A stretch of 64,000 nt of DNA, taken from contig JBJETT010000012.1 of assembly GCA_051883455.1 (NCBI GenBank), positions 64,833-128,832 on the forward strand, read 5' to 3'. The translations under genes were made by a program, and so were the position numbers. This DNA is from Christensenellales bacterium (GTDB lineage: Bacteria > Bacillota > Clostridia > Christensenellales > UBA3700). Every line of letters starts with the position of its first letter. Within the stretch, counting starts at the first letter, position 1. The notes under the pieces were generated by a model, which saw only the letters and a program-made list of their open reading frames with translations, did not search any database and was not told the origin of the DNA. Positions 1,960 through 51,330 of this stretch are shown here, piece by piece.

Positions 1960-2345
1960 AACCGTGGCAATCTCAAGTGCTTTGTCATTGCGAAGCCGTT
2001 AGGCTGTGGCAATCTCAACCGTATATAAGCCTCCTTTGTGCAAAGGGAGGTGTCTCACGGCGTATATACTTCGCAATACAGTGTCGAGTTTGCGGTTTTG
2101 TATCGGTCACATACGTTTTGACGGCGAATATACTACGCAATACAGTGTCGAGTTTGCGGTAGCTTATCGGTCACATACGATATAGTATGCTCCCTCACGC
2201 TATCCTCACTCTCCTTGTCTTGCTTGTATCTACACCGTCAAAATAATATAGTATGCTCCCTCACGCCGTCCTCACTCTCCTTGTCTTGCTCGTATCTCCA
2301 CCGTGAGCGAGCCGCTTAAGCCGAGACGGAGGGAGTGCATACTAT
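1960..2345. repeat. intergenic repeat array A (host repeat family, mostly reverse orientation)
   Basis: Contains two GTGGCAATCTC / TTTGTCATTGCG hairpin units, the hairpin CCTCCTTTGTGCAAAGGGAGG (2030-2050), two MITE-like heads (CACGGCGTATATACTTCGCAATACAGTGTCGAGTTTGCGG) and two tail units (AGTATGCTCCCTCACGC...CTCCTTGTCTTGCT...CCACCGT). Confidence 0.9.
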
Positions 2346-12781: not shown

Positions 12782-13879
12782 ATGAACAAGTATGATTATT
12801 TGATAGTAGGGGCAGGACTTTACGGAGCCGTCTTTGCTCACGAGATGACCAAGAGGGGCAAAAAGTGCTTGGTCGTAGACAAGCGTGACCATATCGCGGG
12901 CAATATTTATTGTGATAAGTGCGAGGGAATTACCGTGCACCGTTACGGCGCGCATATTTTCCATACTTCCAACAAGGCGGTGTGGGAGTGGGTAAATCAG
13001 TTTGCCGAGTTCAATCGCTACACCAACTGTCCTATAGCCAACTATAGGGGCAAACTATACCATTTGCCTTTCAATATGGACACCTTTTACGCTATGTGGG
13101 GAGTGGTTACTCCTCAACAAGCGAGGGCAATCGTCGACGAGCAAGTGGCTCGCGAAAATATTACCGACCCGCAAAACCTCGAAGAAAAGGCACTGTCTTT
13201 GGTTGGTAGAGATATTTACGAGACTCTCGTCAAGGGCTATACCGAGAAGCAGTGGGGCAAAAAGGCAACCCAACTTCCCGCCTTTATTATACAGAGATTG
13301 CCGCTTCGCTTCAACTACGACAACAACTACTTCAATGCCAAGTATCAGGGCATACCTATAGGCGGATATACCCAAATGGTAAGCAATATGTTGCAAGGTA
13401 TAGAGGTTAGGCTTAATTGCGACTACCTCGCTCATAGGGAACAACTCGATGCCCTCGCCGACAAAGTGTTGTACACGGGCGAGATAGACAGACTATTCGA
13501 CTATTGCTACGGCGCGCTCGAGTATCGCTCTCTCAATTTCGAGACGGAGGTCCTCGACCAAGACAACTATCAAGGCGTTGCCGTAATGAACTATACCGAC
13601 AGAGACGTGCCGTATACCCGTATCATCGAGCACAAGCACTTTGACAACGAGCAGTCCGCCAAAACCGTCGTTACGCGCGAGTACCCAGCCGATTGGGATG
13701 TCGACAAAGAGCCTTATTATCCAATCAACAATTCCCGCAACGACCAATTATATCGTAAGTACTACGATTTGGCTTGCCAAAATCCTCGCCTCATAGTCGG
13801 AGGACGGCTTGGCAATTATAAGTATTTTGATATGGATAGGACTATTGAGGAGGCGCTTGCTCTTGCCTCCACCCTTTGA
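12782..13879 (+). CDS. glf: UDP-galactopyranose mutase
   Basis: YDYLIVGAGLYGAVFA FAD motif, HRYGAHIFHT and YPINN motifs. The stop TGA lies inside the first TTTGAC of repeat array B. Confidence 0.9.
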   Translation: MNKYDYLIVGAGLYGAVFAHEMTKRGKKCLVVDKRDHIAGNIYCDKCEGITVHRYGAHIFHTSNKAVWEWVNQFAEFNRYTNCPIANYRGKLYHLPFNMDTFYAMWGVVTPQQARAIVDEQVARENITDPQNLEEKALSLVGRDIYETLVKGYTEKQWGKKATQLPAFIIQRLPLRFNYDNNYFNAKYQGIPIGGYTQMVSNMLQGIEVRLNCDYLAHREQLDALADKVLYTGEIDRLFDYCYGALEYRSLNFETEVLDQDNYQGVAVMNYTDRDVPYTRIIEHKHFDNEQSAKTVVTREYPADWDVDKEPYYPINNSRNDQLYRKYYDLACQNPRLIVGGRLGNYKYFDMDRTIEEALALASTL

Positions 13880-14555
13880 CTTTTGACGGCGGATATACTT
13901 CGTTATACTGTGTCGAGTTTGCGGGTGCGTTCAGTCACGTACGCCCTAGTACGCTCCCTCACGCCGTCCTCACTCTCCTTGTCTAACTCGCATCTCCACC
14001 GTCAAAAAATAGTATGCTCCTATCGCCCAATCCGCACTTTCCTTGTCTAACTCGCATCTCCACCGTCAAAAAATAGTATGCTCCTGTCGCAAAAACTCCG
14101 CTCTTCGCGTCTTACTCGCACCTATGCCGTCAAAGTATATAGCGGATATACTGTGTCGTGCTTAGTCACGTACGCTTAGTACGCTCCTATCGCCCAATCC
14201 GCACTTTCCTTGTCTTGCTTGCATCTACGCACCCAAAGAAAACTGCAAACTCGCACCTATGCCGTCAAAGTATATAGCGGATATACTTCGCAATACTGTG
14301 TCAAAGGGCAATTTTTCTTGCTCACGTACGCAATAGTATGCTCGCTTCGATAAAATCATCGCTTTCCTCGCCTAACTCGCACCTATGCCGCGAGAGGGTA
14401 GTAATATCAACTAATAACAAGAGGCAACGATAAAGTTGCCTTTTTCCTTGTCTTGCTCGCATCTACGCATCCAAAAGTGCTTTGTCATTGCGCTGTGCAC
14501 ATTTTGCGTTATCAAAGACGTAGGCACTTGTTGCCGAAGTGTGGCAATCTCAATC
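13874..14555. repeat. intergenic repeat array B (MITE-like units with tandemly amplified ~60-bp tail sub-units, one GAGATT unit)
   Basis: Begins TTTGACTTTTGACGGCGGATATACTTCGTTATACTGTGTCGAGTTTGCGG. The tail unit TAGTAYGCTCC...CCTTGTCTAACTCGCATCTCCACCGTCAAA recurs at about 13949, 14010, 14073, 14178 and 14334. It ends with a reversed long GAGATTGCCAC...CGCAATGACAAAG unit (14478-14551). Confidence 0.9.
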
Positions 14556-14560
14556 AATAA

Positions 14561-14587
14561 AAAAAACTCGATACGTATCGAGTTTTT
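14561..14587. terminator. recurrent palindrome, bidirectional terminator-like (AAAAAACTCGATACGTATCGAGTTTTT)
   Basis: Perfect hairpin flanked by A-run and T-run, 28 nt past the stop of the convergent DUF1846 gene. Confidence 0.65.
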
Positions 14588-14614
14588 GCTATTTTTAGTT
14601 ATCTTTTCAAGGTT

Positions 14615-18885: not shown

Positions 18886-20979
18886 ATGATTATCAATCTA
18901 AAATTCAATAGCCAGACGGGTATGTTGACGCCTATGTCCAACTACACGCTGGCGCAACACAATCATTTGGCGGACCAAATTGTAATCGTAAGCAATGCGC
19001 CTAATTGCAAGGACTACAATTATTGTCTGGAGTTTGTGTGTTACAACACCAAAAACGTGCCAAAAGCTCAATACGTATCGGAAATTTTGAATTATACGGA
19101 CGAAGGAATTACGTTTGACGTTCCCAATAATCTCACTCAATACGCAGGCTTCGTGGACGTACAGCTTACGGGATATTCCAAGGACAGCAACAACGTTATT
19201 TTTAAGTCAATCAGCAAAAATACCAAAGCATTTTCCGTAGAAGGCTCGTTGTCGGTTTTAGACAACGCGCTCAGCGATACGCCCAACATTCTGACGCTTT
19301 TGCAACAAGAGCTCGACTACGTGCGAGAGGTCAAAGAGACTATTGCCAACGACTTTGAAAACCTCATCAAAAACGACCTTGGACAAGTGCTCGAAGACTT
19401 TGAATATTGTAGCGTAGAGTTCGTGTTTTACGACAAGACCTTTTGCAAGAGCTATAAAAACAACAGCATCATAACCCCGCCCGTGCTCAATCTATCCGAT
19501 GACGTAACGATGCTAGGTTGGGTGGAGCAGAATAGCGGTAGACAGTGGAATTTTGACCAAGATAGAGTGCAAGGAAAATTGACGCTCGTTGCCAACGTGC
19601 AGAGCGTGGGCGTTGAGGTGCAAAACGGCAATCTGATTGGCTACGTCGGCAATAGCGACGATATATACGTGCCATACTGCGTGGACGAAATCATTACCTC
19701 GGCTATTGGCGATAGCTGGCAAGTTGCTACGCCAAAAAACGCCGTTTATTTGCCTATCGGTATGAGCGATTGTGCCAAAGTCAATGCAAGATTTTTTAAC
19801 CAAGTAGTGGGTGGAAAAGATACCGTAGAAAAGGACGGTATTTTTTATGACCAACAAGGTCAAAGACTCGTAGGCATGACGGCTAAGAGATTGGCTAGTC
19901 AACAAGACGTTTTGGTATTGGACGGCGTGCAAAGTATACAAGCTTACGCCTTTTTTGGAGCAAGTGCCACCAAGATAATTTTGCCTAACTCGCTAGAGAA
20001 AGTGGGAGAGTATGCTTTTGGCAATTGCCGAAATTTGCAACAAGTGACCATACCGAGCAACGTAGTAGAGATAGGCGCACGTGCGTTCTTTGGGTGTGAT
20101 AGCAATCTAGAGGTCACGCTAACCTCCGCCAAACCGCCTACTATAAGCGCGTCGACTTTTGAAGTTAATAGTGGGGCATACGCCAAAATTACGGTGTACG
20201 ATTGGGCGTACGAAGGTTATCAAGCCGACGTCAATTTTGCAACTATTACGTCACCGCTTGGCGGAGTGGATTGTATAGGCGAAATACGTAGTTTGCAACA
20301 AACGGTGGCGGAGAACCGACAAGCTATGCAGACGCGTATAGACGGTGTGGAGCAAACCGTAAGCAACAACCATCAAGCTATGCTCACTCGTATAGACGGC
20401 GTGGAGCAGACCGTAAGCAACAACCATCAAACTACACAGACACGTATAGACGGCGTGGAGCGGACCGTAAGCAACAACCATCAAACTACACAGACACGTA
20501 TAGACGGCGTAGAGCAAACCGTAAGCAACAACCATCAGACTACGCAGTCACGTATAGACGGCGTAGAACAAACAGTTAGCACCAACAAGCAGTCGGCGCA
20601 ATCGCAAATAGACGTGTTGAAAAAACTATACAGCGTGGGCAGTATATATATGTCGGTGAGTTCTACCAGCCCCGCAAGTTTGTTTGGCGGAACTTGGGAG
20701 AGAATAAAAGACAGATTTTTGCTTGGCGCAGGCGATAACTATAGTGCTGGTGCAACGGGTGGTAGTGCAACGCATACTTTGACGATTGACGAAATGCCGA
20801 GCCATACGCACAAACAATCGGGTGGTTCGAGCGGTGTAAATAACGACGGAAGCGTTTTCCAAAGAGGTTATTCGGCTACGCTAAAGGCGGCGGCGGACGC
20901 AAGCGTGACCGGCGGCGGACAAGCGCATAACAATATGCCGCCTTACTTAGCAATTTATATTTGGAAACGCACGGCGTAA
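18886..20979 (+). CDS. phage tail-fibre-like protein (N-terminal domain, BspA-type leucine-rich repeats, 18-aa repeat stalk, tail-collar-like C-terminus)
   Basis: 697 aa. LRR segment LPNSLEKVGEYAFGNCRNLQQVTIPSNVVEIGARAFFGC. About six copies of RIDGVEQTVSNNHQTTQT. C-terminus SVGSIYMS...LFGGTWERIKDRFLLGAG...HTLTIDEMPSHTH...GGGQAHNNMPPYLAIYIWKRTA is typical of Firmicute phage fibre tips. Confidence 0.75.
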   Translation: MIINLKFNSQTGMLTPMSNYTLAQHNHLADQIVIVSNAPNCKDYNYCLEFVCYNTKNVPKAQYVSEILNYTDEGITFDVPNNLTQYAGFVDVQLTGYSKDSNNVIFKSISKNTKAFSVEGSLSVLDNALSDTPNILTLLQQELDYVREVKETIANDFENLIKNDLGQVLEDFEYCSVEFVFYDKTFCKSYKNNSIITPPVLNLSDDVTMLGWVEQNSGRQWNFDQDRVQGKLTLVANVQSVGVEVQNGNLIGYVGNSDDIYVPYCVDEIITSAIGDSWQVATPKNAVYLPIGMSDCAKVNARFFNQVVGGKDTVEKDGIFYDQQGQRLVGMTAKRLASQQDVLVLDGVQSIQAYAFFGASATKIILPNSLEKVGEYAFGNCRNLQQVTIPSNVVEIGARAFFGCDSNLEVTLTSAKPPTISASTFEVNSGAYAKITVYDWAYEGYQADVNFATITSPLGGVDCIGEIRSLQQTVAENRQAMQTRIDGVEQTVSNNHQAMLTRIDGVEQTVSNNHQTTQTRIDGVERTVSNNHQTTQTRIDGVEQTVSNNHQTTQSRIDGVEQTVSTNKQSAQSQIDVLKKLYSVGSIYMSVSSTSPASLFGGTWERIKDRFLLGAGDNYSAGATGGSATHTLTIDEMPSHTHKQSGGSSGVNNDGSVFQRGYSATLKAAADASVTGGGQAHNNMPPYLAIYIWKRTA
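20281..20610 (+). repeat. 54-bp in-frame tandem repeat (about 6 copies) inside the tail-fibre-like CDS
   Basis: CGTATAGACGG starts at 20335, 20389, 20443, 20497 and 20551 (period 54), with a degenerate copy before. Confidence 0.95.
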
Positions 20980-22264: not shown

Positions 22265-22770
22265 TAGGTTTAGTCGTACTCTCAAAGGGTAAGATTAGAA
22301 GCAATCCCTCCGTCTTGCCTTTCGGCGAGCCACCTCCCTTTGCACAAAGGAGGCAGGCAGTCCCCCACTGGACAAAGTCGGGAGTCCCCTTTACACAAAG
22401 GGGCTTTTAAGCGGTTGAGATTCCCACGGCTTGCAAGCAAGCCTCTGAATGACAACATTATTTGGTCTGCGCTCCACCGCAATGACAAAGAGTTCAATCC
22501 CCCAGTCCGCAATGCGGATAGCCCCCTTTACACAAAGGGGCTTTTAAGCGGTTGAGATTCCCACGGCTTGCAAGCAAGCCTCTGAATGACAACATTATTT
22601 GGTCTGCGCTCCACCGCAATGACAAAGAGTTCAATCCCCCAGTCCGCAATGCGGATAGCCCCCTTTACACAAAGGGGCTTTTAAGCGGTTGAGATTCCCA
22701 CGGCTTGCAAGCAAGCCTCGGAATGACAAAACTATTTGGTCTACGCTTTACCGCAAAGACGAAATACTCA
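22265..22770. repeat. intergenic repeat array C, including a 3 x 137-bp tandem repeat (22358-22768)
   Basis: CAATCCCTCCGTCTTGCC double-hairpin module at 22302. CAATCCCCC units start at 22358 (variant), 22495 and 22632. Each unit holds two hairpins plus one GAGATTCCCACGGCTTGCAAGCAAGCCTCTGAATGACAA unit. Confidence 0.95.
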
Positions 22771-22850
22771 AAAAGTCGATACGTGTCCATAAAAATACAA
22801 AAACTGTATAAAATATGCCGTCTTTCTTATACTAAAACGGGAGGAAAATT

Positions 22851-27772: not shown

Positions 27773-27864
27773 AAAGTCGATACATATCGACAAAAAAGAT
27801 TCCTTTTGAAATATAAGGGAGTCTTTTTTTTACAAAGAGTGTAAACGTTTTTATTATATTTAGA

Positions 27865-28392
27865 CAACCCTTCCACCACCTACGGTGGTCCCCCTTCCCT
27901 TGCACAGGGGCGGCTTTTTGTATGGATAGAGATTCCCACGGACGTAAACGTCCTCTGAATGACAGACTACTTGGTCGATGCATGCAACGAAATGACATAT
28001 TTATCAATCCCTCCGTCTTGGCATAGGCGGCTTGCGCACGGTGGAGATACGAGCAAGGCAAGGAGAGTGAGGACGGCATGAGGTAGCATACTAAATTGTA
28101 TATGACCGAACGCACCCACAAACTCGACACCGCATTGCGAAGTATATGCCGTGAGACACCCTTCCCGTACACAGGAGGGCGGCAGGCAATCCCCCAGTCC
28201 GCAAGGCGGACAGCCCCCTTTACACAAAGGGGCTTTTTTTATGGAGTAAGATTGCCAAGTTACGCTACGCTCCACCGCAATGACATAAAGCGGTTGAGAT
28301 TGCCGCACTTCGTCTTTGCTAGCGCAAAATGCAGTGGGCGCAATGACAAAAATACGAGATTGCCACGCCAGAGGCTCGCAATGACAAAACTG
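27865..28392. repeat. intergenic repeat array D
   Basis: Double-hairpin variant (CCACC-ACCTAC-GGTGG, then CCCCTTCCCTTGCACAGGGGCGG). Four GAGATT units. A reversed MITE-like unit (28030-28150). A second double hairpin, TCCGCAAGGCGGA + CCCCTTTACACAAAGGGG (28198-28232). Confidence 0.9.
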
Positions 28393-31407: not shown

Positions 31408-31975
31408 TTTGACTTTTGACGGCGGATATGCGTCGTTATACTGTGTCGAGTTTGTGGGTGCGTTCGGTCACGTACGCCTAAGTACGCTCCCTCACGCCGT
31501 CCTCACTTTCCTTGTCTAACTCGCATCTCCACCGTCAAATAGAGGTTAGCGGATATGTTTCGTTATGCATTGTCGACTTTGTAAGTGAAAACAATAAAAA
31601 CTCGATACGTGTCGATATTTTTAGTAAAATTGTGAAGCAAACCGTCAAAAGAAAAGAGTAATTGCTTATAAGATTTAGTCTTACTCTCAAAGGATAGAAC
31701 GGAATACAATCCCTCCGTCTTGCCATTCGGCAAGCCACCTCCCTTTACACAAAGGAGGCTAGAAAAGGATTGAGATTCCCACGTTTCACTCGGAATGACA
31801 AGGATATTATCGCAATGACATAGGAGGCTTTTTAAGCGGTGGAGATTGCCACGTCACTCCGTTCCTCGCAATGACATTAGGGTAGAGATTCCTACGCTCG
31901 CTTTGCTCGCTCTGAATGACAACACTACTTGGTCTACGCTCCACCGCAATGACATCGATATCATCGTAATGACGA
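31408..31975. repeat. intergenic repeat array E
   Basis: Starts immediately after the spoIIE stop with TTTGACTTTTGACGGCGGATATGCG (a complete MITE-like unit to 31535). Then a palindrome at 31596-31622, a double hairpin at 31707-31758 and at least three GAGATT units. Confidence 0.9.
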
Positions 31976-40384: not shown

Positions 40385-40410
40385 AAAAAGTCGATACGTA
40401 TCGACTTTTT
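40385..40410. terminator. recurrent palindrome AAAAAGTCGATACGTATCGACTTTTT (consensus copy)
   Basis: Perfect 26-nt palindrome overlapping the stop codon of the convergent ferritin-like gene. Confidence 0.7.
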
Positions 40411-40918
40411 AGTATTGCGTTGGCTCTTGCGCGAGTGTGGAGAGCAAGTCTTGGAATATGGAGATATGCAACTCTTCGTCCATTATTATACGGGAGATGA
40501 GGTCTTTGAGCGAAGGGTTGGATACGCACTCGATAGTGCGACGATATTTGGCGATGGCTTGCCGTTCCGCCTCGATATTGGCACGAAGAATAGCGACGGG
40601 ATTTTTGATATAATTGACGTTGCTACCCGACCAAAAACACGTGCTTCCCGCAATGATAGGGTCGCCACCTGCCATTACGATTGCTTCACCGAGAAGTTCG
40701 TGATGGTGCATCTCCGTAATAGCAATGCCCATGAGAGCGTCACCTATCTCGGGATATTCCGTGTCCAATATGTAATGTTGGTATACGTATTGCATAACTG
40801 CCGTGGTTTCGCTCTTACGACCGCCGTAGTCGTCAACAAGACAGCGGACTTCTTTGGGAGATAGATAGCCCGTAAGCTCGGGATAAGGTAGTGATAATGC
40901 GTATTGTTGGGTATTCAT
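40409..40918 (-). CDS. ferritin-like / manganese-catalase-family (CotJC-like) protein
   Basis: 169 aa. ETTAVMQYVYQHY, EMHHHELLGE and ERQAIAKY...DEELH resemble a di-iron four-helix bundle. Confidence 0.6.
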   Translation of the reverse strand: MNTQQYALSLPYPELTGYLSPKEVRCLVDDYGGRKSETTAVMQYVYQHYILDTEYPEIGDALMGIAITEMHHHELLGEAIVMAGGDPIIAGSTCFWSGSNVNYIKNPVAILRANIEAERQAIAKYRRTIECVSNPSLKDLISRIIMDEELHISIFQDLLSTLAQEPTQY

Positions 40919-40977
40919 AATATGCTCCTTAGATTGGTCTAGAGTATTGTATTCGGGTGGGGCGTTTTCTGTTACTC

Positions 40978-41212
40978 TTTGACGGCATAGCTACGTCGCA
41001 ATACTATGTCGAGTTTGTGAAGTATATGTGCCGTGAGGCACCTCCTTTACACAAAGGCTAACAATCCCCCACCCGACTTTCGTCGGGAGCCCCCTTTGCA
41101 CAAAGGGGCCTTTTTATAAGGATGATATTCCCACGCCTTACGGCTCGGAATGACATAACTACTTGAGATTGCCAAAGCATCGGGCGCAATGGCAAACATA
41201 GGAATTGCGGGC
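40978..41212. repeat. intergenic repeat array F
   Basis: A MITE-like head followed by its own inverted copy (40981-41037). A double hairpin with CCCGAC-TTTC-GTCGGG then CCCCCTTTGCACAAAGGGG (41071-41108). Two GAGATT-type units. Confidence 0.85.
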
Positions 41213-41304
41213 AAAGTTACCTCTATGTAAGGATTTGAAAGCACTCAAAACTACGATTTGGGGGATATAATGCTATAAAAAAGCCAAAAATTGATAAAAA
41301 ACAG

Positions 41305-41333
41305 TTGAAATTTGATAATCGGTATGTTATCAT
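41305..41333 (+). promoter_or_regulatory. sigma-A type promoter upstream of secG
   Basis: TTGAAA, a 17-nt spacer, then TATCAT. Confidence 0.45.
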
Positions 41334-41367
41334 ATGTTAGCAATCAAAAAATGGAGGATTGTTATTG

Positions 41368-41664
41368 ATGAACTTTATGTACATGCTCTCGGCTGCATTG
41401 ATACCGGCAGAAGTAACCAACTGGTTGCGTCCAACGCTTCAAATTCTTATGACTTTGGTGAGTGTGGCTGCTATCGTAATAGTTTTGATGCAAAAGGGTA
41501 CTAACGACAATATTGGCGTAATTGGCGGTCAGGAAACCGAAACTTATGCGGGCAAGAATAAGGCAAAATCTAAAGAAAGCGTGTTGAAAAAACTTACCAT
41601 TGTTATGGGCGTTTTGTTCTTGGTGCTTTCGGTATTGTTCTTTATCACTTATCTCGAAGCATAA
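41368..41664 (+). CDS. secG: preprotein translocase subunit SecG
   Basis: Two TM helices flanking LMQKGTNDNIGVIGG. Located upstream of smpB and ssrA. The ATG at 41368 is preferred (GGAGG 10 nt upstream) over the TTG at 41359. Confidence 0.7.
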   Translation: MNFMYMLSAALIPAEVTNWLRPTLQILMTLVSVAAIVIVLMQKGTNDNIGVIGGQETETYAGKNKAKSKESVLKKLTIVMGVLFLVLSVLFFITYLEA

Positions 41665-41753
41665 CGAAATCTAGAAATCGAGTTCCCTTGCTGCAATAGG
41701 CAAGGGAATTTTTTTGACCTAATTGGAAGGTAATATTGCAATGGGGCGGCAAG

Positions 41754-42045
41754 CAATCCCTCCGTCTTGCCTTTCGGCAAGCCACCTCCCTTTGCACAAA
41801 GGAGGCTAAAAGTAGAGATTGCCGCGGCTAAAGCCTTTGCTAACGCAAAATGTACACAGCGCAATGACATAAAGCGGTTGAGATTGCCACACTTCGTTCG
41901 CAATGACATATAGCTTAGATTCCCACGCTTAACGGCTTTACTAACGCAAAATGCACTGGGCGGAATGACAGAAAACACGAGATTCCCATGCCTGACGGCT
42001 CGGAATGACACATTACTTGGTTTAGGCGCCACCGCAATGAAAACA
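41754..42045. repeat. intergenic repeat array G
   Basis: A double hairpin (CTTGCC-TTTC-GGCAAG then CCTCCCTTTGCACAAAGGAGG, 41754-41805) followed by four GAGATT(G/C)CC...AATGACA units, two of them the long CTTTGCTAACGCAAAATG variant. Confidence 0.9.
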
Positions 42046-43938: not shown

Positions 43939-44874
43939 ATGCCGATAGTTATTCCTAAATCACTGCCTGCGTTTCAAATACTGACCAAGGAAAGGATTTT
44001 CGTTATGCCTCAAGCGAGGGCAATCAAACAGGATATCAGACCTATCCGTATTGCCATCGTCAATTTGATGCCGACCAAAATCGATACCGAAACGCAACTT
44101 ATGCGATTGCTAGGCAATTCTCCTCTGCAAATAGAAGTCACTTTGGTGGCTATGGATAGCTATACCTCGCGCCATACCCCTCTCGAGCATATGGAAAAGT
44201 TCTATAAGACCTTCGACCAAATCAAGGATACCAAGTTCGACGGCATGATTATCACCGGCGCGCCCGTGGAACAAATGGCATTCGAAGAAGTGGCGTATTG
44301 GAAAGAGTTGACGAGAATAATGGATTTTTGCGAGAGCAACGTTACCTCGACTATTTATATTTGTTGGGGCGCACAAGCGGGCTTGTACTACCACTATGGC
44401 ATCAACAAGCACAACCTCGACAAAAAGCTATTTGGCGTGTGCAGTAACGTCAGTTGCGACACTAAGGAACTTTTGCTCAAAGGTATGGACGATACTATAT
44501 ATATCCCAATGTCAAGGCATACCGCCGTGGACGACCAAGCCATTGCCGCCAACCCCGACCTCGTGCCTCTCGCTTACGGCGACGACTGCGGTTATAGCAT
44601 CATCAAGTCTAAGGATAACCGCAAGTTTTTCTTGATGGGACACAGCGAGTACGATAGAGAAACCTTGCGCAACGAGTACCTCAGAGATAAAGAAAAGGGC
44701 TTGGATATCGAGCAACCTTTCAACTACTTCGTCGGCAGAGATATCAACAAAATCGACATGAAATGGAAGTCTACCGCCAACCTGTTGTTCTATAATTGGC
44801 TTAATTATTACGTATATCAAGTTACGCCATACGATTTGACGGCGGATATGCGTCGCGATACTGTGTCGAACTAG
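43939..44874 (+). CDS. metA: homoserine O-acyltransferase (MetA family). The last 13 codons are encoded by a repeat element.
   Basis: IRIAIVNLMPTKIDTETQ and GAPVE...ICWGAQA motifs. The conserved NYYVYQVTPYDL end runs into the TTGACGGCGGATATGCG repeat head at 44836. Confidence 0.85.
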   Translation: MPIVIPKSLPAFQILTKERIFVMPQARAIKQDIRPIRIAIVNLMPTKIDTETQLMRLLGNSPLQIEVTLVAMDSYTSRHTPLEHMEKFYKTFDQIKDTKFDGMIITGAPVEQMAFEEVAYWKELTRIMDFCESNVTSTIYICWGAQAGLYYHYGINKHNLDKKLFGVCSNVSCDTKELLLKGMDDTIYIPMSRHTAVDDQAIAANPDLVPLAYGDDCGYSIIKSKDNRKFFLMGHSEYDRETLRNEYLRDKEKGLDIEQPFNYFVGRDINKIDMKWKSTANLLFYNWLNYYVYQVTPYDLTADMRRDTVSN

Positions 44875-45088
44875 CATTTTTGTTTGGTCACATACAAGGA
44901 GTATGCTCCCTGCACAAAAGCCGCGTTCTCCTTGTCTCGCTCGCATCTCCACCGTCAAATGTGGAGGATAGCGGATATGCGACGTTAGGCTTTGTCAAGC
45001 GGCAATTTTTCTTGCTCACGTACGCCTAGTACGCTCGCTTCGATAAAATCACCGCTTTTCGCGCCTAACTCGCATCTTCACCGTAAAA
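44836..45088. repeat. intergenic repeat array H (two MITE-like units)
   Basis: Head-plus-tail units at 44836-44960 and 44968-45088, matching arrays B and E. Confidence 0.9.
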
Positions 45089-45356
45089 TGGGGGATAAGA
45101 TAAACTAAACTAGGGCAAAACACGTTGTGGTGTAAACAACTTTCCGCTCCCTTAAGACGGCAAATCCATTTGACATAAGTTCGTAATTTTGGAAGAATTT
45201 GTGTGGCGAAATAGGTTGTAAATTAATATAAAGTTATGTAAAATATAGTTGCTGAGCAATTAGATTGGGGATAATTTACTTGTAATCCAATTGCTTTGAG
45301 ACAATTAGCGTTGCTAAGTAAAAAAATCAAAAAAGTCGACACGTATCGACTTATTT

Positions 45357-45699
45357 GGGGGTGTTACGGATTCGACAGGAGAAATGAGGACTGTGTAAGC
45401 ACGGCGAAGGCTCGGCTTCGTAAAAACGGAAATTAAATTTAAACGCTAATAATAACAAACAAATTGCCGTAGCTGCTTAATCGCTCGGCTGTCGTCCAAG
45501 GGCTCCACGACTTTGGAACGGCATCAGTCAGTGGAAAGTGCCTAAGGGAAGCACCCGTGCCCATAGGCGAGATTAGGGCTTGTTCGACGACGACTTGGTA
45601 GCGTTGGCGCCGTCGAAGACCAATCAACGCATACTAACCGTGTAGAAAGCCCAGTAAGAATTCTTTTGGACGCGGGTTCAACTCCCGCCATCTCCACCA
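45357..45699 (+). ncRNA. ssrA: tmRNA (transfer-messenger RNA)
   Basis: 5' GGGGGUGUUACGGAUUCGAC. 3' GGACGCGGGUUCAACUCCCGCCAUCUCCACCA, whose acceptor stem pairs with the 5' end. Tag ORF GCT AAT AAT AAC AAA CAA ATT GCC GTA GCT GCT TAA (45445-45480) encodes ANNNKQIAVAA. smpB lies upstream. Confidence 0.95.
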
Positions 45700-45775: not shown

Positions 45776-46912
45776 TTAGCATATAAACATTTCGATAAGC
45801 ATCTTTTTGGTATTAAGTTTTGGGGCGTTGGGCTTTTTATAATGCAAATGACCGATAATTGAACAAAAAGAAAAACCCTGACTGTCGTCAAGGTTTAATC
45901 GTGTTGGGTTGTTGAATATGATTTTTACTTTGTCTTCGTATAAGATTATTTCTTTCACCAGATGCTCAATCAGCATTTTTGGTTCGAGTTTTAGGGCTTC
46001 TATATAGAACTTACGCATTTCGCTTTCTGATATTTTTGTCTGTTGTCGACTTTTTTCTATTATGATTTCCTTTTCTAGACTATCTTGTTGTTGCTCAAGT
46101 TCCTTTAATCTTTGGATAGTGGTTCTTGTGGAAGCGCCGTTTTCGATTGCTTTTACGATATTGTTTAATGCTTTATCAACTTTACTTTTTTCTTTAGTTA
46201 GCATTGATAGGGTTTGATTCATCATTGTGTTTTCTTGCATTTTTAGCAAGGTTGGCACGATTTTGTTGATGATTTCAGGTTTGCTCATTTCTTTAATTAT
46301 GGCATTTATAATTAGTTCTTCCAAATACTCTTTGCGAACTTGCGATTTTAGACAACCGTTGTGGTCAATTTTTCTACCTTTACACTTGTAGTATCTAATT
46401 ACGCTACCGTTTTTTGCAGTTCCTGTTTCCGCAACAATCGGTCTGCCACAATATCCACAAGTTACTTTACTTCTCAATAAGTATTCGGTTTTTACGCTCC
46501 GTTTGCCATATCTATTTTTGTCTATCTTTGAACGGACGATAGAGTATATTTCCGTTGAGATAATTTGTGGATAAGTATTGTAGAAGACTTCGTCTTTATA
46601 TCGGTATACACCCGAATATTTTTCGTTTTTTAATATTCCGTATATGGTGTTTTGAGCAAACGGTTTTCCTTTGTGGTAAATACATTTATTGTTTAAGTTG
46701 TCGATAATTTCTCTAACGTAAGTGCCTTTTGCATATTCTTGGAAGATGTATCTAACGATTTCCGCTTCATTTTCGTCGATTATGATTTTTTGTTGGTTTA
46801 GTTTGTAGCCATAGGGTAGACCTCCACCGTGATAAAGTTCTTTCAATCTTGTTTCTCTCATTCCACGTCTAATCTTTTGCGAGAGTTCTGCCGAATAATA
46901 TTCTGCGTATCC
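45776..46912 (-). pseudogene. large serine recombinase, C-terminal 378 codons (recombinase domain and zinc ribbon), severed from its catalytic domain
   Basis: The frame stays open upstream of the track Met (46861) to 46939 and reads ...FDLLEGYAEYYSAELSQKIRRGMRETRL. There is no resolvase catalytic domain. The missing N-terminus is at 57866-58246. Confidence 0.8.
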
Positions 46913-46962
46913 TTCAAGTAGGTCAAATGGACATAATGCCTATTTTGAGGGTAGTTGGTTTG

Positions 46963-48588
46963 TTAAGTCGATAGAACCGAGTCAATATCAATCTTATAGT
47001 AGATATGAATCTCCTGCGGTTTTCCCGTAACCGTTTCTTTACCGCCGATGACAAGGTGATCGAATAACGCCAAACACATTTCACGGGTGAGCGTAGGAGA
47101 ATTAAAATACATTTTCAGCCTTAGGATAAATTCGTCCACGTCCGTCTTTACTTGCGTCAATTCTTCGATTCCCTGCGTAAGAGTGGTTACTTTCTCTTTC
47201 AGTTCCGTCTGTTCGGCGGTGTACTTTTCGATTAACTTCACGCACACGCTTTCGGGAATTATGCCTGCAACTTTTTCTTCAAACGCAGCTTCAATTAGCT
47301 TGTCAAGTTCGGTTAATCGCTTGTCGGCTCTTTTAAGATCTTTCTTGACGTCGGCTTGATTTCTGTCCGCAAGCGTCGCTTGCCGTTCCAGATACTGCCG
47401 TTTGAATTCCGCTTCGTGCCCTATAATCATTTTGGCTTTTGCGGCAATATCGTTTTTGACAATCTGTTCCAAAACGGGTACCGTAATGAAATGACTGAAA
47501 CAAGCAGACGATCCTAACCGTGATTTACTTCCGCAGTTGAAGTTGAAATACGGAATATCTTTCGGCATATTCCAACCAAGCCGCATTTTAGCGCCGCAGT
47601 CCGCGCAGAACATCAGTCCCGATAACGGGTGCATAAAACCTCTTGCAGTATGCTTTCCGTGTCCTATGGCTTTTTCGACCTCCTTGACTTTATCCCAGAG
47701 TTCTTTCGAGATAATGGCTGGGTGTGCGTTTTCGACGATAATCCATTCTTCTTCAGGACGGCGTTGCCACTTATGGTTCTTGTATGAAATTGTAGTTGAT
47801 TTGTGTTGAACTAAATTGCCGATATACGCCTGATTGTTCAGTAGAGTACGGAGAGCGGAAGTACTCCATAGGTGAGCAGAATTTCTGACGCCGTTTATGC
47901 CCGTCTTTGCAATGCGGTAATCGTTGGGCGTTAATACCTTTTCGACGTTGAGAATATCCGCTATCTTTCTCGGCGTTAAGTCGCTTGCCCGCATTTCAAA
48001 AATGCGTTTTACAATAGGTGCGGTTTCTTCGTTTATTTGCAGGGTACGTTTTTCGTCCGTTCCAAGTATGTAACCGTACGGCGGGTGGGACATTCCGTTT
48101 TTGCCTTCCTTTGCGTTCTTGATACGCACGGCGCGCAACTTCTTGCTTGTGGTTGCCGCCCACCATTCGTTAAACACGTTGGTAATCGGCATCATATCCA
48201 TAGCGGGAGTGTCTTTTTTCTCCGTGTCGATATTGTCCGATAGCGCCACAAACCGTATTCCGAACGTAGGGAAGACGTAATCGAGATACTGTCCTACCAT
48301 AATGTAGTTTCTTCCGAAACGGCTCATATCCTTTACGAGAATAGTATTGATAACCCCTTGCTTAGCGTCTTCGAGTAATCTCTTTACTCCCGGTCTTTCA
48401 AACGTGGTTCCCGAAATTCCGTCGTCCACATAAATATTATGGAGGGTCCAGCCCTGTTCTTCGATATACTCTGAAAGGATAGCCTTTTGGTTTTCGATAG
48501 ATAGCGATTCGCCAGCACGTTCGTCGTCTCGGCTTAATCTTACGTACATTCCGACAATGTAGTCTTTGTTGTTTTGCTTTGATTTCAT
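46963..48588 (-). CDS. large serine recombinase (TnpX/TndX-like)
   Basis: Catalytic domain YVRLSRDDERAGESLSIENQ...VKDMSRFGRN, a recombinase domain, a Cys-rich zinc ribbon (CADCGAKM...CGSK) and a C-terminal coiled coil. The start is moved to MKSKQNN at 48588 (AGGAGT RBS). Confidence 0.9.
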   Translation of the reverse strand: MKSKQNNKDYIVGMYVRLSRDDERAGESLSIENQKAILSEYIEEQGWTLHNIYVDDGISGTTFERPGVKRLLEDAKQGVINTILVKDMSRFGRNYIMVGQYLDYVFPTFGIRFVALSDNIDTEKKDTPAMDMMPITNVFNEWWAATTSKKLRAVRIKNAKEGKNGMSHPPYGYILGTDEKRTLQINEETAPIVKRIFEMRASDLTPRKIADILNVEKVLTPNDYRIAKTGINGVRNSAHLWSTSALRTLLNNQAYIGNLVQHKSTTISYKNHKWQRRPEEEWIIVENAHPAIISKELWDKVKEVEKAIGHGKHTARGFMHPLSGLMFCADCGAKMRLGWNMPKDIPYFNFNCGSKSRLGSSACFSHFITVPVLEQIVKNDIAAKAKMIIGHEAEFKRQYLERQATLADRNQADVKKDLKRADKRLTELDKLIEAAFEEKVAGIIPESVCVKLIEKYTAEQTELKEKVTTLTQGIEELTQVKTDVDEFILRLKMYFNSPTLTREMCLALFDHLVIGGKETVTGKPQEIHIYYKIDIDSVLST

Positions 48589-49194
48589 TCTTTTACTCCT
48601 TTGAATCAAAGCAGCCTGAATTTTCAATGTGCTATGATTATACCACGACACACCAAAAAATTCAAGCTACCCGATAATATATTTAGTTTGCAGAATTTTT
48701 CATTTCCGCAAGTACTTGTCTGAAAGCCAAATCGCCGAATACCTTTTTGAAGTCTTTGCCTCCGACGTAATGACTTACGACTACGTACTTTTTTCCGTTT
48801 ATGATCTCGGTATGAGAAGTAGTAGGAACGCTGTCTCTCCCGTTGATCAGCTGTGTTGATGCTCTGTTCGTAATTTTCCCTCCTATATCTTGTTAATTTG
48901 TCATTCATATTCAGTTTTCATATTTAATTCCTCCGTGTCGTCGCCGCAAACTTTGCTTTGAGCCGCCCTTTGGCACAGACGGCAACATTGCGTCGTTGCG
49001 GCTCCTCTTCCCACAAAAATATTTCATCTTTTTGCGGAAACCCTTTTGCACGATTCCTTAATGCGGTTTATCCGCATAACCGTTCAAACGGCATTTTTTC
49101 GTATAAAAAAGCCGTGATTACTCTTTCAATCCTTTTACCTTTTCACATTCATTAGGACGTATTCTTCACGGTCATTTTTTGTCTTATTCAGTTG

Positions 49195-50166
49195 TTACTT
49201 TCCGCCTTTACCGTTTGCGTTACTATGTACGTTAAAGGAAGAAGACGGGGTTTTCTTTTCTCTTGACTTCTTTAATAGTTCGTCGAATTCTTTGGGGTAT
49301 GCGCTCATCATATCCGCTACCATTCCGAACGCTGCGTCGTTTGCCTTGGCTTTGCGTTCCGCTTTTTGCAGTTGCGCAAACAGAGAATCGGTATCTCTGT
49401 TTTTGATAGCGATATACTCTTTGTAGGCGGCGTTTTGCGTTCGCAGACTTTCTATTTCCGCCTCAACAGCCTTCCGCATTTTGGGGATAGGCTTGTTTTT
49501 CGCATCTTCAACTACTTGAACAGTCTGCGTTAATTCGTCCAGCTCGGCTCTCTTTTTCTCGGTCTGTTCGTCGATTTCTCTTTCACGCTGTTCTGCACTC
49601 TCGATTATCTTCTTTGCCTTAAATTCTGCCGTGGAGAGGTGCTTTGCCTGACTGCCTTCCTTGCCTCGTTGTAATCCCCATTTCTTGCCGATTCTCTCGT
49701 GCAATTCGGTTTGGAGTTCGGCAAGTTTCTGCCTGTCAAAAAGACTTTTACTGCTCAACCGTCCTTGGTTGACAGGAATGAAATTGAGGTGCATATGCGG
49801 CGTGGTTTCATCCATATGTACGACTGCGGAAATCATATTTTCTTCCCCGTACTTGTCCGAAAAGAACTGCACACAGTCCTTGAAAAATTCCTGCTGTTCC
49901 CACGGGTATAGCCCCTTAAAAAACTCGCCGTCCGACGTTACTATAAACGAATTCATAAGAATAGCGTCCGAACGGATTTTGCGTTTTAAATCCAACTCCG
50001 ATAGCCTCTCGTTGATTATCTCCATATAGCTTTTCCTCGGCAATATAAGGTGATAATTGAGGTGCGTTCTCGAACTGTCTATCTGCGGATTGCTCGCCTG
50101 ATAGGTCTCGTCTCTTTCATTTTCCTCCTCGACAGGGCTGACTTCCTGCCGTTTATATTTTTCCAT
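49195..50166 (-). CDS. MobV-family relaxase (Mob/Pre plasmid recombination enzyme) with an atypical N-terminus
   Basis: NPQIDSSRTHLNYHL and the HMDETTPHMHLNFIP (HxDExxPHxH) motif, then a coiled-coil C-terminal half. The usual MSY...HNxR N-terminal segment is replaced (ENER). Confidence 0.8.
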   Translation of the reverse strand: MEKYKRQEVSPVEEENERDETYQASNPQIDSSRTHLNYHLILPRKSYMEIINERLSELDLKRKIRSDAILMNSFIVTSDGEFFKGLYPWEQQEFFKDCVQFFSDKYGEENMISAVVHMDETTPHMHLNFIPVNQGRLSSKSLFDRQKLAELQTELHERIGKKWGLQRGKEGSQAKHLSTAEFKAKKIIESAEQREREIDEQTEKKRAELDELTQTVQVVEDAKNKPIPKMRKAVEAEIESLRTQNAAYKEYIAIKNRDTDSLFAQLQKAERKAKANDAAFGMVADMMSAYPKEFDELLKKSREKKTPSSSFNVHSNANGKGGK

Positions 50167-50206
50167 ATGACATACTAAATAACTGATAATTTTTTCCTCC
50201 TACACC

Positions 50207-50271
50207 GCTTGCGCCTTGCACTATGCGCAAGCTCATCTCGGCTTGCCCAAACAGCGCACTGTGCTGTTTGG
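50207..50271 (-). other. candidate oriT (two inverted repeats immediately upstream of the relaxase gene)
   Basis: GCTTGCGC-N10-GCGCAAGC (50207-50232) and CCAAACAGC-GCACTGT-GCTGTTTGG (50247-50271). Confidence 0.4.
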
Positions 50272-50388
50272 AAAACTGCAAGCCTCGTCTCACAGAGCGA
50301 ACGGAACTTATGAAATAAGTGTAGTGAGTTACACCTATGATAAGGACATAGGTTTTGCTTCCCGTTTGCTTCCAAGTTGCTTGACATA

Positions 50389-51063
50389 TTAACCGCTTGC
50401 TCCTTTGCGACTGCGGAAGGTTTCAACTGCCTTATACAAAGACATTGAATGAGTATCTTCGTTTTCCTTTACAAACTCGTAAAGCTCGTTTACATCCACA
50501 CCGTCTAATATCGGATTCTGAAAACTTAAATTCCCCGTACAGCCGAACACTTTTAATTCATCTATCGTGTGTAAAGTAGTAGGAGTTTCCTGCTTAGGTT
50601 TCTTTGCTGTACCGCCTTTGCTTCCTGCCTTTCTCCGTTTAATGGAAGTGTTTAGAGTTAGCAACGTTAACTCGTAATACTTCTTGACTGTAGCAGATAA
50701 TTCCTTGGGTTGTCTGCCGTTGAACGCTAACTCGCATATTGCCTGCAAGTATTCCTTCGCTTTGTCATCTTCAAGGGATAGCATTTTGTTGTAATAGTTC
50801 CTGCGGAAAGTGAAGTGCTTCCATTTGGCGTTGTATGCCTTGGGCGTTTTGACTTGCAGTTCCTTTTCCCGTTGCGGAGCCAATACTTCCACAAGATCTT
50901 CCCAGATAAGTGCCTGAGTTTTGTCTGTAGGTGTTTCCTCGTTTCCGTCCAGCATATAGCGGCATATATGCCCGATAATGCTCTTTACGGTTGCCCCGTC
51001 CTCGTCCTTCACCAAATCCCAATATGGCTGGTAAAAAGTAAATTTGTCTTGTTTGTTTTCCAT
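50389..51063 (-). CDS. hypothetical protein of the mobile element
   Basis: 224-aa ORF in the same orientation as the mob gene. No motif recognised. Confidence 0.55.
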   Translation of the reverse strand: MENKQDKFTFYQPYWDLVKDEDGATVKSIIGHICRYMLDGNEETPTDKTQALIWEDLVEVLAPQREKELQVKTPKAYNAKWKHFTFRRNYYNKMLSLEDDKAKEYLQAICELAFNGRQPKELSATVKKYYELTLLTLNTSIKRRKAGSKGGTAKKPKQETPTTLHTIDELKVFGCTGNLSFQNPILDGVDVNELYEFVKENEDTHSMSLYKAVETFRSRKGASG

Positions 51064-51330
51064 TTCATTCTCCTTTTAATGTTTGATTTAATTACAAAAG
51101 CGGAACTGTTAATTACAGCTCCGCTTTTAGGTTGGTGTTATTCAGTTGTCTTTCAATTTGGTGGTGCTCGTGCCATGTCTTTCTCCTTTTTCGGTATAAG
51201 AAAAACCTGCAACAGACTTGTTACAGGTTTTATACCGTTTATTTTGTTGAAGGGGTCTTATCTACCCTCTCACTTATATAAGGACAACTACTGCCCGAAA
51301 TTATGCAAGTAATTTAAATAATTAAAAGTT

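Follow-up and report, generated by a model that had tools for sequence, protein, structure and literature searches.

Which kind of sequence keeps a constant architecture of two hairpins while the first of the two stems is exchanged from copy to copy? This question is raised by a short intergenic module that recurs in the 64-kb stretch of DNA analysed here (the window). The window is a segment of a sporulating Clostridia chromosome with a G+C content of about 45%. It carries spoVT, a gene for a MurJ-like flippase, mazG, dus, spoU, spoIIE, tilS and hprT, and further cca, rmuC, pgm, smpB and the tmRNA gene; a polysaccharide gene cluster and an integrated mobilisable element also lie within it. 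Several of its intergenic regions measure 0.6-1.3 kb and are packed with at least four families of short repeats. The initial annotation had described one double-hairpin module at 22302-22403. A module is indeed found there, but the span is not a single unit and consists of two abutting modules, the second of which is degenerate. A covariance model built from 28 module copies and run on the 64-kb window recovers 10 modules, nine of them on the + strand and all of them intergenic. These copies, the parts of copy 1 and the array in which some of them lie are the following:

2028 to 2065, - strand: module copy 10, truncated, with hairpin 2 intact and the 5' part degenerate (26.9 bits)
22299 to 22355, + strand: module copy 1, left-end type (type C; covariance model, 52.2 bits, and predicted fold)
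22305 to 22311, + strand: pyrimidine tract TCCCTCC of copy 1, mirror of the hairpin-2 5' arm (mirror covariation)
22312 to 22331, + strand: hairpin 1 of copy 1, the variable stem, with the conserved mismatch near the base and a G.T pair
22333 to 22353, + strand: hairpin 2 of copy 1, CCTCC-C-TTT / AAA-GGAGG with the loop GCAC
22356 to 22406, + strand: module copy 2, degenerate, right-end type (type B; 37.2 bits and triplex detector)
22386 to 22760, + strand: tandem array, 2.7 units of 137 nt (Tandem Repeats Finder, 97% matches, score 701)
22492 to 22543, + strand: module copy 3, type B, stem TCCGC-AAT-GCGGA (69.2 bits)
22629 to 22680, + strand: module copy 4, type B, tandem duplicate of copy 3 (69.2 bits)
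27862 to 27915, + strand: module copy 5, divergent, with CAACCCTTCC, CCACC..GGTGG and TCCCTTGCACAGGGG (26.7 bits)
28184 to 28235, + strand: module copy 6, type B with the stem TCCGC-AAG-GCGGA and a T-run downstream (70.1 bits)
31704 to 31760, + strand: module copy 7, type C, in the spoIIE-tilS spacer (57.7 bits)
41059 to 41111, + strand: module copy 8, type B, stem CCCGAC-TTTC-GTCGGG (66.1 bits; terminator scan and triplex detector)
41751 to 41807, + strand: module copy 9, type C, stem CTTGCC-TTTC-GGCAAG (55.4 bits)

Copy 1 consists, in this order, of CAATCCCTCC, CGTC-CTTGCC-TTTC-GGCGAG-CCA and CCTCCCTTT-GCAC-AAAGGAGG. Hairpin 1 of copy 2 has decayed, while its hairpin 2 is located at 22386-22403, and each 137-nt unit of the array is a module joined to a GAGATTCCCAC..GAATGACA repeat. 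The variable stems that had been read from the sequence initially are all present: CTTGCC-TTTC-GGCAAG at 41768, its version with an ATTC loop at 31720 and its G.T variant at 22316, TCCGC-AAT/AAG-GCGGA at 22505, 22642 and 28198, CCCGAC-TTTC-GTCGGG at 41071 and CCACC..GGTGG at 27872. The head of the module, CAATCCCYC, occurs nine times in the window where 0.56 occurrences are expected, a number reached in none of 100 shuffles, and the hairpin-2 core occurs ten times where none is expected. Predicted folds of the window copies give both hairpins, with z values from 0 to -3.7. All modules of the window are singletons, and head-to-head pairing is absent here.

A scan of one genome per species revealed at least 116 loci with the hairpin-2 core, and the hosts of the listed loci are nearly all uncultured Clostridia of gut or rumen (Oscillospiraceae, Christensenellales, Acutalibacteraceae, Faecousia). 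Among plasmid and phage collections, 22 places were found in the 861-kb replicon of Vescimonas fastidiosa, and in the phage collections the matches were short and confined to unannotated faecal 'phage' contigs. We confirm that the module is a real dispersed DNA repeat with hundreds of copies in uncultured gut and rumen Clostridia. A literature search with the exact module sequence returned no match. From the loci listed in the scan we extracted 99 unique full modules and counted pairs in a register that was set by the two constant flanks, hence with no model fitting. Pairing at the three variable stem positions of hairpin 1 amounts to 87-89%, compared to 41-49% in shuffles, all four Watson-Crick pair types are present at these positions, and the hairpin-1 sequences are distinct in 89 of 95 unique copies. 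A larger alignment of 142 distinct copies, which was fitted to the model structure and leans towards it, gives 95.0% pairing cells versus 77.0% after shuffling, a covariation score of 0.428 versus 0.142 and 329 versus 99 cells changed on both sides; none of 500 shuffles reaches these values, although shuffle statistics overstate independence because the copies are related by descent. Shifting the partner columns abolishes the covariation signal in the aligned copies. The claim of the initial annotation that the layout stays constant while a paired first stem is freely replaced is therefore borne out by covariation far above the shuffles, also across copies of other genomes.

In the stem of hairpin 2, the T:A to C:G exchange that had been noted is confirmed (UA 93, CG 46), and the outermost pair flips as well (GC 80, CG 59). 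A mismatch near the base of hairpin 1 is kept as A.A or C.A. Three subfamilies are distinguished: type A reads CCCTC-AGTC..GACAG-CTCCC..GGAG-CC, type B is type A with C and G replacing T and A, and type C reads CCCTC-CGTC..GCCAC-CTCCC..GGAG-GC. An AAGGAGG sequence buried in hairpin 2, to which attention had been drawn at first, is a property of one subfamily, while the remaining ones carry AAGGAGC or AAGGGGC. Neighbouring modules are most commonly arranged head-to-head (18 cases, versus 9 head-to-tail and 3 tail-to-tail), and paired neighbours belong to different subfamilies.

Two features go beyond the initial annotation, the relation of the pyrimidine tract to hairpin 2 and the role of the module as the end of a gene-bearing element. 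The pyrimidine run behind CAA and the 5' arm of hairpin 2 are mirror images of each other, which makes the run the parallel (Hoogsteen) counterpart of the purine arm. Within the tract, the T/C position covaries with the T:A/C:G pair of hairpin 2. Mirror identity is 0.97 compared to 0.71 after shuffling, a value that none of 5000 shuffles reaches. Perfect mirrors account for 18 of 27 haplotypes, in lists that omit obvious false detections, whereas 5000 shuffles give a mean of 2.5 and a maximum of 9. An independent metagenome sample, in which the search pattern left the tract and arm positions free, contains three main haplotypes that are all perfect mirrors (41, 35 and 17 copies) as well as the rarer perfect variant TCCTCCC/AAGGAGGG. 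The variant TCCTTCC/AAGGAAGG is limited to the genome sample and keeps the mirror rule, which also holds in TCCCCTC/AAGGGGAG, CCTCTCC/AGGAGAGG and CCCCTCC/AGGGGAGG. A competing Watson-Crick helix of 4-7 bp between the tract and the purine arm is enriched, too (4.89 versus 4.21 in shuffles). As the sole cause of the covariation this pairing was rejected, its signal being weaker than the mirror rule, and it is kept as an alternative.

Because the tract mirrors the 5' arm of hairpin 2, the module has the block order of an intrastrand triple helix. The blocks follow each other as Hoogsteen-pyrimidine, pyrimidine and purine, an order that Holder et al. 2015 (PMC4666352) assign to class IV; the complement has the order of class II (purine motif). 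In copy 1, the tract TCCCTCC is a candidate for the third (Hoogsteen) strand. A pyrimidine-motif triplex with at least five adjacent protonated cytosines is unlikely at neutral pH, and only the purine motif of the complementary strand appears to be a physically plausible triplex. A strict triplex detector recognizes five copies of the window where 0.1 are expected, with copies 2, 3 and 8 among its matches. The second loop of the putative triplex is made of hairpin 1 and its linkers and spans 15-44 nt, which exceeds the limits of 1-6 nt in ITxF and 0-10 nt in an earlier triplex search (PMC4666352). A rare short form of the module that lacks hairpin 1 exists as well.

Clustering of the ORFs adjacent to modules yielded one recurrent family, Pfam DUF559 (100-108 bits). 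The protein matches PDB entry 3HRL with an E value of 5e-20 and 3R3P (I-Bth0305I) with 0.002, and the residues E62, D64, H68, D77 and R80 are invariant. The loci that were selected by the module contain 16 DUF559 genes, most of them tightly flanked by modules, and at least 10 of the 16 are bracketed by an inverted pair in which the CAATCCC heads point at the gene. A search with the DUF559 protein gave at least 8000 clusters (90% identity), and the contigs concerned are mostly 0.5-2 kb long. Four contexts were selected by the protein alone (HTH/recG, lipase/MFS, mazG/rpsT and aldose epimerase), and in all four one module ends at the ATG and the other begins 26-35 nt before the stop codon. An intact element measures about 450 bp and consists of two head-to-head modules around a gene for a DUF559 protein of 122-125 aa (Vsr-fold, EDxHD-type). 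The left end reads AGCCTCCCTTGTGTAAAGGGAGG-TGG-hairpin-AC-GGAGGGATTGTC-ATG; the left module provides GGAGGGATTGTC-ATG on its other strand, and the ribosome-binding site is thus made of the tract in reverse complement. At its 3' end the gene reads ...CAA TCC CTC AGT CAG CTT CGC TGA, so that QSLSQ, a variable tail and the stop are encoded by the right tract and hairpin 1, the TGA being located in the 3' arm of hairpin 1 of the right module. Usually the left end is of type C and the right end of type A or B, an order that is reversed in two loci (L032 and L059). Among 67 head-to-head pairs, the spacer length is bimodal, with 1-103 nt in 53 pairs and 347-424 nt in pairs that all hold an intact gene. 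Remnants of the gene were not detected by tblastn in the short doublet spacers, of which 4 of 53 begin with ATG. The sequences suggest that the DUF559 product may be an active nuclease, that the module may fold into a triplex and that the element may be mobile.

How do the copies of the window relate to these elements? A DUF559 gene is found neither in the 64-kb window nor in 38 kb of its three closest relatives, and the DUF559 link for the source genome therefore rests on family membership. The modules of the window are probably orphan ends in repeat arrays of fast turnover. This turnover becomes apparent when orthologous regions of relatives, all of them draft metagenome assemblies, are taken via SpoIIE homologues of 97%, 88% and 54% identity. 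The spoIIE-tilS spacer measures 669 bp in the window and 940, 488 and 67 bp in these relatives, respectively. Its module, copy 7, is of type C with a CTTGCC stem in the window and in the 97% relative, while the same slot holds a type B module with a TCCGC stem in the 88% relative, where the flanks are still alignable. Copy 6 (28184) and the repeats downstream of it are absent in the 97% relative (L118), and the slot of copy 5 (27862) is occupied by a type C module in the 88% relative. Decay of individual copies is seen in L118 and L119, where hairpin 2 is broken. Modules are thus lost, replaced and decayed at single loci, and conservation therefore belongs to the family and not to a single locus, as is predicted for a proliferating element. 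The initial annotation had proposed to date insertions in orthologous spacers; the comparison does show loss and replacement of modules, but exact insertion junctions are not among its results. For the mazG-rpsT slot, a comparison of empty and occupied sites via S20 homologues of 90-98% identity gave no exact insertion boundaries because the neighbouring DNA is not syntenic.

We consider it probable that the module, with its observed architecture, its two covariations, its DUF559 association, the dimorphism of its doublets and its turnover between relatives, is a DNA repeat of triplex layout that forms the ends of DUF559-nuclease elements, that the copies in the window are orphans of such elements, and that the repeat spreads by means of the nuclease and host recombination. 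The DUF559 nuclease would recognize the folded or distorted end of a module and nick or cut there, and recombinational repair against another copy would spread or exchange the module in the manner of homing or gene conversion. Since nucleases of the PD-(D/E)xK type cut without joining DNA, a host pathway has to be assumed for this step. Hairpin 1 would drift by compensatory changes because folding is the sole demand on it, while the tract and hairpin 2 would stay constant, being read by sequence or structure. Locally, long and unstable intergenic repeat arrays would be the outcome. Less in line with this reading are the modules of the window, being singletons and not head-to-head pairs, the decay of individual copies, and the two orientations in which the gene is found with respect to the end types. 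We infer that the ends are folded when DUF559 recognizes them, that copying proceeds via host recombination and that the triplex forms in cells.

A similar neighbourhood is found around DUF559 genes outside the Clostridia. We applied a generic triplex detector to eight DUF559 loci, from E. coli, three Deinococcus, Shinella, Sphingomonas, Neisseria and Azospirillum. Of the 25 triplex-type motifs detected there, 19 are located at most 300 nt from the DUF559 gene, in a zone that makes up 12% of the sequence (P = 3e-13), and usually one motif is found on each side of the gene, in inverted orientation. E. coli ycjD ends in a C-rich palindromic unit, with a TM_ECO-type motif about 170 nt downstream. 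The DUF559 gene of N. gonorrhoeae has CTCTCTCCC-TGT-GGGAGAGAG-CTA-GAGAGAGGG on either side, and that of Azospirillum has a unit resembling the gonococcal one about 30 nt before the ATG. BoxC/PIT/TM_ECO repeats have been described in E. coli and in over 260 further genomes (Holder et al. 2015, PMC4666352). The E. coli motif has a class II layout; its triplex is stable in vitro, and the loci that it marks are unstable. According to the 2015 survey, a mobility function was never found next to such motifs, and DUF559 is not mentioned there (PMC4666352). Our literature search for DUF559 and ycjD gave no link to triplex repeats. We tentatively propose, with the odds close to even, that DUF559 endonucleases, including YcjD and the N. 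gonorrhoeae 3HRL protein, are the missing partner of BoxC/PIT/TM repeats across phyla. A gene for a minimal Vsr-fold nuclease, bracketed by triplex-forming inverted repeats, would then constitute a distinct and ancient selfish element, solitary repeats would be its gene-less derivatives or its targets, and the Clostridial module would be the form in which the triplex loop grew into a hairpin of free sequence.

The same doublets could be understood differently, if modules were independent repeats of the triplex or REP kind and DUF559 a free-standing homing gene that targets the spacers of head-to-head doublets. In favour of this, spacers are either empty, with 12-25 nt, or filled with an intact gene, and partial remnants are missing; more than 90% of the doublets are empty, modules outnumber genes by about 20:1, and with respect to the end types the gene is seen in either orientation. 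The Vsr-like EDxHD fold also includes a proven homing endonuclease, I-Bth0305I, so that relatives of the protein are homing enzymes (PMC3239194). However, the Shine-Dalgarno sequence of the gene is part of one module, its last 7-12 codons and the stop are part of the other, and the distances are fixed across four unrelated contexts; moreover, DUF559 genes of five other lineages are flanked by distinct triplex-type motifs of their own, which points to a long co-evolution as a unit. We therefore regard a landing pad for an independent homing gene as rather unlikely, though it is the main rival of the reading of modules as element ends.

A cis-acting role in RNA is improbable. Transcribed hairpins could serve as intrinsic terminator, as stabiliser of mRNA 3' ends or as a switch that hides a Shine-Dalgarno sequence. 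Single copies agree with such roles: those at 28215 and 41091 pass a terminator scan, type B copies of the window have 4-7 T after hairpin 2, several copies fold better than their shuffles (z -2.5 to -3.7), the right module lies at the 3' end of the gene in intact elements, and AAAGGAGG is a perfect Firmicute Shine-Dalgarno sequence. The family as a whole behaves otherwise. With respect to the flanking ORFs the modules have no preferred direction (18 co-directional, 15 opposite, 8 convergent, 7 divergent), hairpin 1 shows 9 G.T versus 17 A.C mismatches, about 100 copies from other genomes continue after hairpin 2 with CCTTNN or GCTNN and not with a T-run, and a conserved start codon after hairpin 2 is absent. 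Also, the terminator scan finds 20 sites in the window and 20.3 in shuffles, and the spoIIE-tilS module sits between a terminator-like palindrome and a promoter-like box. That hairpin 2 might terminate transcription had been suggested from the sequence; 2-3 of the 10 window copies pass the scan, but the T-run is not conserved and the role is not a general one, and the ideas of termination and of Shine-Dalgarno burial fit some copies at most. An RNA-level role is thus not favoured, and the evidence points to DNA rather than RNA. A search of the whole window against Rfam 15 at gathering thresholds detects only the tmRNA, and no family matches the module. The Rfam Clostridiales-1 RNA (RF01699) resembles the module in its occurrence in gut Clostridiales and its multi-hairpin layout; membership was rejected, since the only match, from local E-value searches, has 12.6 bits compared to a gathering threshold of 48, and it is located on the opposite strand, for the most part in the adjacent repeat. 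Separately from the modules, the window contains a clearer terminator-like palindrome, AAAAACTCGATACGTATCGAGTTTTT.

A classical REP/BIME-type repeat moved by a RAYT or an IS200-type tyrosine (HUH) transposase is very improbable, even though the head-to-head heterodimers and mosaic arrays look like BIMEs and type C copies resemble CGTC-tagged REPs (PMC3733652) in that the CGTC tag itself and a CCA tail are present, since tblastn with IS200 and IS608 TnpA probes, approximate ones that distant RAYTs could escape, found no Y1 transposase in 1.8 Mb of module-bearing loci, DUF559 is the only gene recurrently bracketed by modules, and the stems lack two defining features of CGTC REPs, A-T as the first and second pair and a length of 8-9 bp.

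With the module placed at the ends of DUF559 elements, its likenesses to known systems can be ordered. In common with BoxC/PIT/TM, it has a pyrimidine arm, a complementary purine arm and a mirroring third tract in consecutive order, is G/C-rich and intergenic and occurs in many copies per genome, at loci that are rearranged between close relatives. In contrast to BoxC/PIT/TM, a hairpin of 15-35 nt and of free sequence replaces the second loop, the sequence is unrelated, and the hosts are Clostridia, a group not mentioned in PMC4666352; beyond that survey, a DUF559 gene adjoins the module, as it does at E. coli ycjD. REP/BIME and REPIN-RAYT systems (PMC3116915, PMC2817692) are likewise short structured repeats, often in inverted doublets and mosaic arrays, and REPIN repeats also far outnumber a single-copy gene that is bracketed by the same repeats. 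Here, however, the bracketed gene encodes a PD-(D/E)xK (Vsr-like) nuclease in place of an HUH tyrosine transposase, two hairpins and a mirror tract make up each repeat, and doublet partners come from different subfamilies. CGTC-tagged REPs (Di Nocera et al. 2013, PMC3733652) share with the module the predominance of head-to-head dimers, the frequent heterodimers and the fact that a transposase is unreported. These repeats carry an unpaired CGTC/TGTC tag and a CCA tail of 3 nt; hairpin 1 of type C has CGTC and CCA, but G and C of the tag can pair, and types A and B carry a paired AGTC at this place. In CGTC-tagged REPs the stem has 8-9 bp, with A-T as its first and second pair, and the loop measures 4-5 nt (PMC3733652), whereas the stems of the module have 5-10 bp and start with G-C or C-G, the loops mostly have 3-4 nt, and a constant hairpin and a conserved 5' tract are additionally present. 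The DUF559 protein shares the fold and the catalytic E, D, H and D with I-Bth0305I and Vsr (PMC3239194, PMC3424549). I-Bth0305I, in contrast, is located in a group I intron of a phage and possesses an additional DNA-binding region at its N-terminus, while the DUF559 protein is a minimal domain of 122 aa bracketed by structured repeats.

BoxC/PIT/TM repeats have been known since the 1990s, with triplexes in vitro and a link to genome instability, but their origin is unexplained, and DUF559 is a very common domain of unknown function. The association of DUF559 with the module may thus link two long-unexplained features of bacterial genomes. Its occurrence in Clostridia, Proteobacteria and Deinococcus gives both partners a testable function, the hypothesis being a structure-specific nuclease that acts at triplex or hairpin DNA ends. 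For genome analysis, the modules explain why intergenic regions of gut Clostridia are swollen to 0.5-1.2 kb, contig breaks and differences between close strains coincide with them in these bacteria, and they generate spurious ORFs and false candidate RNA motifs. A search for further contigs with the same SpoVT gave a single one, which breaks off inside repeats at 161 nt upstream of the gene. Another repeat of the arrays, GAGATTSCCRC..GSAATGACA, fits CGTC-tagged REPs better than the module does if it is read on the opposite strand.

Small DUF559 genes, which code for predicted Vsr-like endonucleases, also lie within catabolic or housekeeping operons outside Clostridia (loci L275, L276, L279, L282), at sites that include hpaB|next hpa gene (Deinococcus), paaD|paaZ and gatB/yqeY|dnaG. 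Each of these genes carries on its flanks inverted motifs of the triplex type (with the block layout that the double-hairpin module shares with the E. coli intrastrand-triplex repeats), which is what insertions would predict. In the E. coli K-12 ycjD region (L256, 3541-4335), the DUF559 gene ycjD has a perfect 17-bp inverted repeat closely upstream. On its downstream side the 3' end of ycjD is partially duplicated, and a TM_ECO/BoxC-type motif lies beyond this duplicate.

In the window, the modules are always accompanied, in the same orientation, by a second repeat family, GAGATTSCCRC-inner hairpin-GSAATGACA, with 24 matches against 2.9 expected. Its outer stem covaries (ATTCC/GGAAT versus ATTGC/GCAAT), and its other strand, TGTC-ATTSC...GSAAT-CTC, fits the CGTC/TGTC-tagged REPs (PMC3733652) in its tag, in having A-T at positions 1-2 of the stem, and in its 3-nt tail. 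Further families, ACGGCGGATATACTTCG..TGTCGAGTTTG and TCTCCTTGTCT..CTCCACCGTCAAA, lie immediately 3' of stop codons; they are kept in the 97% relative (relatives graded by SpoIIE identity) and missing from the 88% relative, where a 180-bp block is gone. A palindrome, AAAAA(C/G)TCGATACGTATCGA(G/C)TTTTT, recurs at gene ends.

Repeats and other features of the window
1964-2016 (-), 13294, 14541 (-), 22417, 22554, 22691, 27929, 28296, 28356, 31772, 31842, 31885, 41124-41989: GAGATTSCCRC..GSAATGACA repeats
2048-2340, 13875-14475, 31408-31580, 40973-41017, 44828-45025: ACGGCGGATATACTTCG..TGTCGAGTTTG and TCTCCTTGTCT..CTCCACCGTCAAA repeats
14562-14593, 22770-22807, 27773-27800, 31596-31627, 40385-40416, 45330-45361: AAAAA(C/G)TCGATACGTATCGA(G/C)TTTTT palindrome
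20260-20614: tandem array of five 54-nt (18-codon) units, inside ORF 18886-20979
45357-45699 and 45776-52536: tmRNA gene region and the block behind it

The palindrome resembles a shared bidirectional terminator. As a terminator candidate it is stronger than hairpin 2 of the module, to which the initial annotation had assigned a possible terminator role. The divergent module at 27862 is preceded by a promoter-like box, TTTACA-17-TATTAT (27829-27857), that is kept in both close relatives and stops 5 nt short of the module, and TTTTT follows the module; transcription of this single copy could yield an RNA of about 55 nt.

The block 3' of the tmRNA gene has a lower G+C content and encodes two serine recombinases, a Mob_Pre relaxase and a DUF6291 protein. 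The block probably represents an integrative mobilisable element with its insertion site at the tmRNA 3' end, and none of the repeats lies in it (45776-52536). The tandem array is part of an ORF for a 697-aa protein combining BspA-type LRR with a phage baseplate Gp10 C-terminal domain.

The repeats described here appear to cause breaks in short-read assemblies. The exact SpoVT of the window is encoded on just one other contig (L117, SRR30616779), which begins 161 nt upstream of spoVT, within the repeat array, and many DUF559 homologues sit on contigs of 0.5-2 kb. A finished replicon of the cultured Oscillospiraceae Vescimonas fastidiosa (NZ_AP023416.1, 861 kb) gives 22 blastn matches to the module and is suited to a complete module census.
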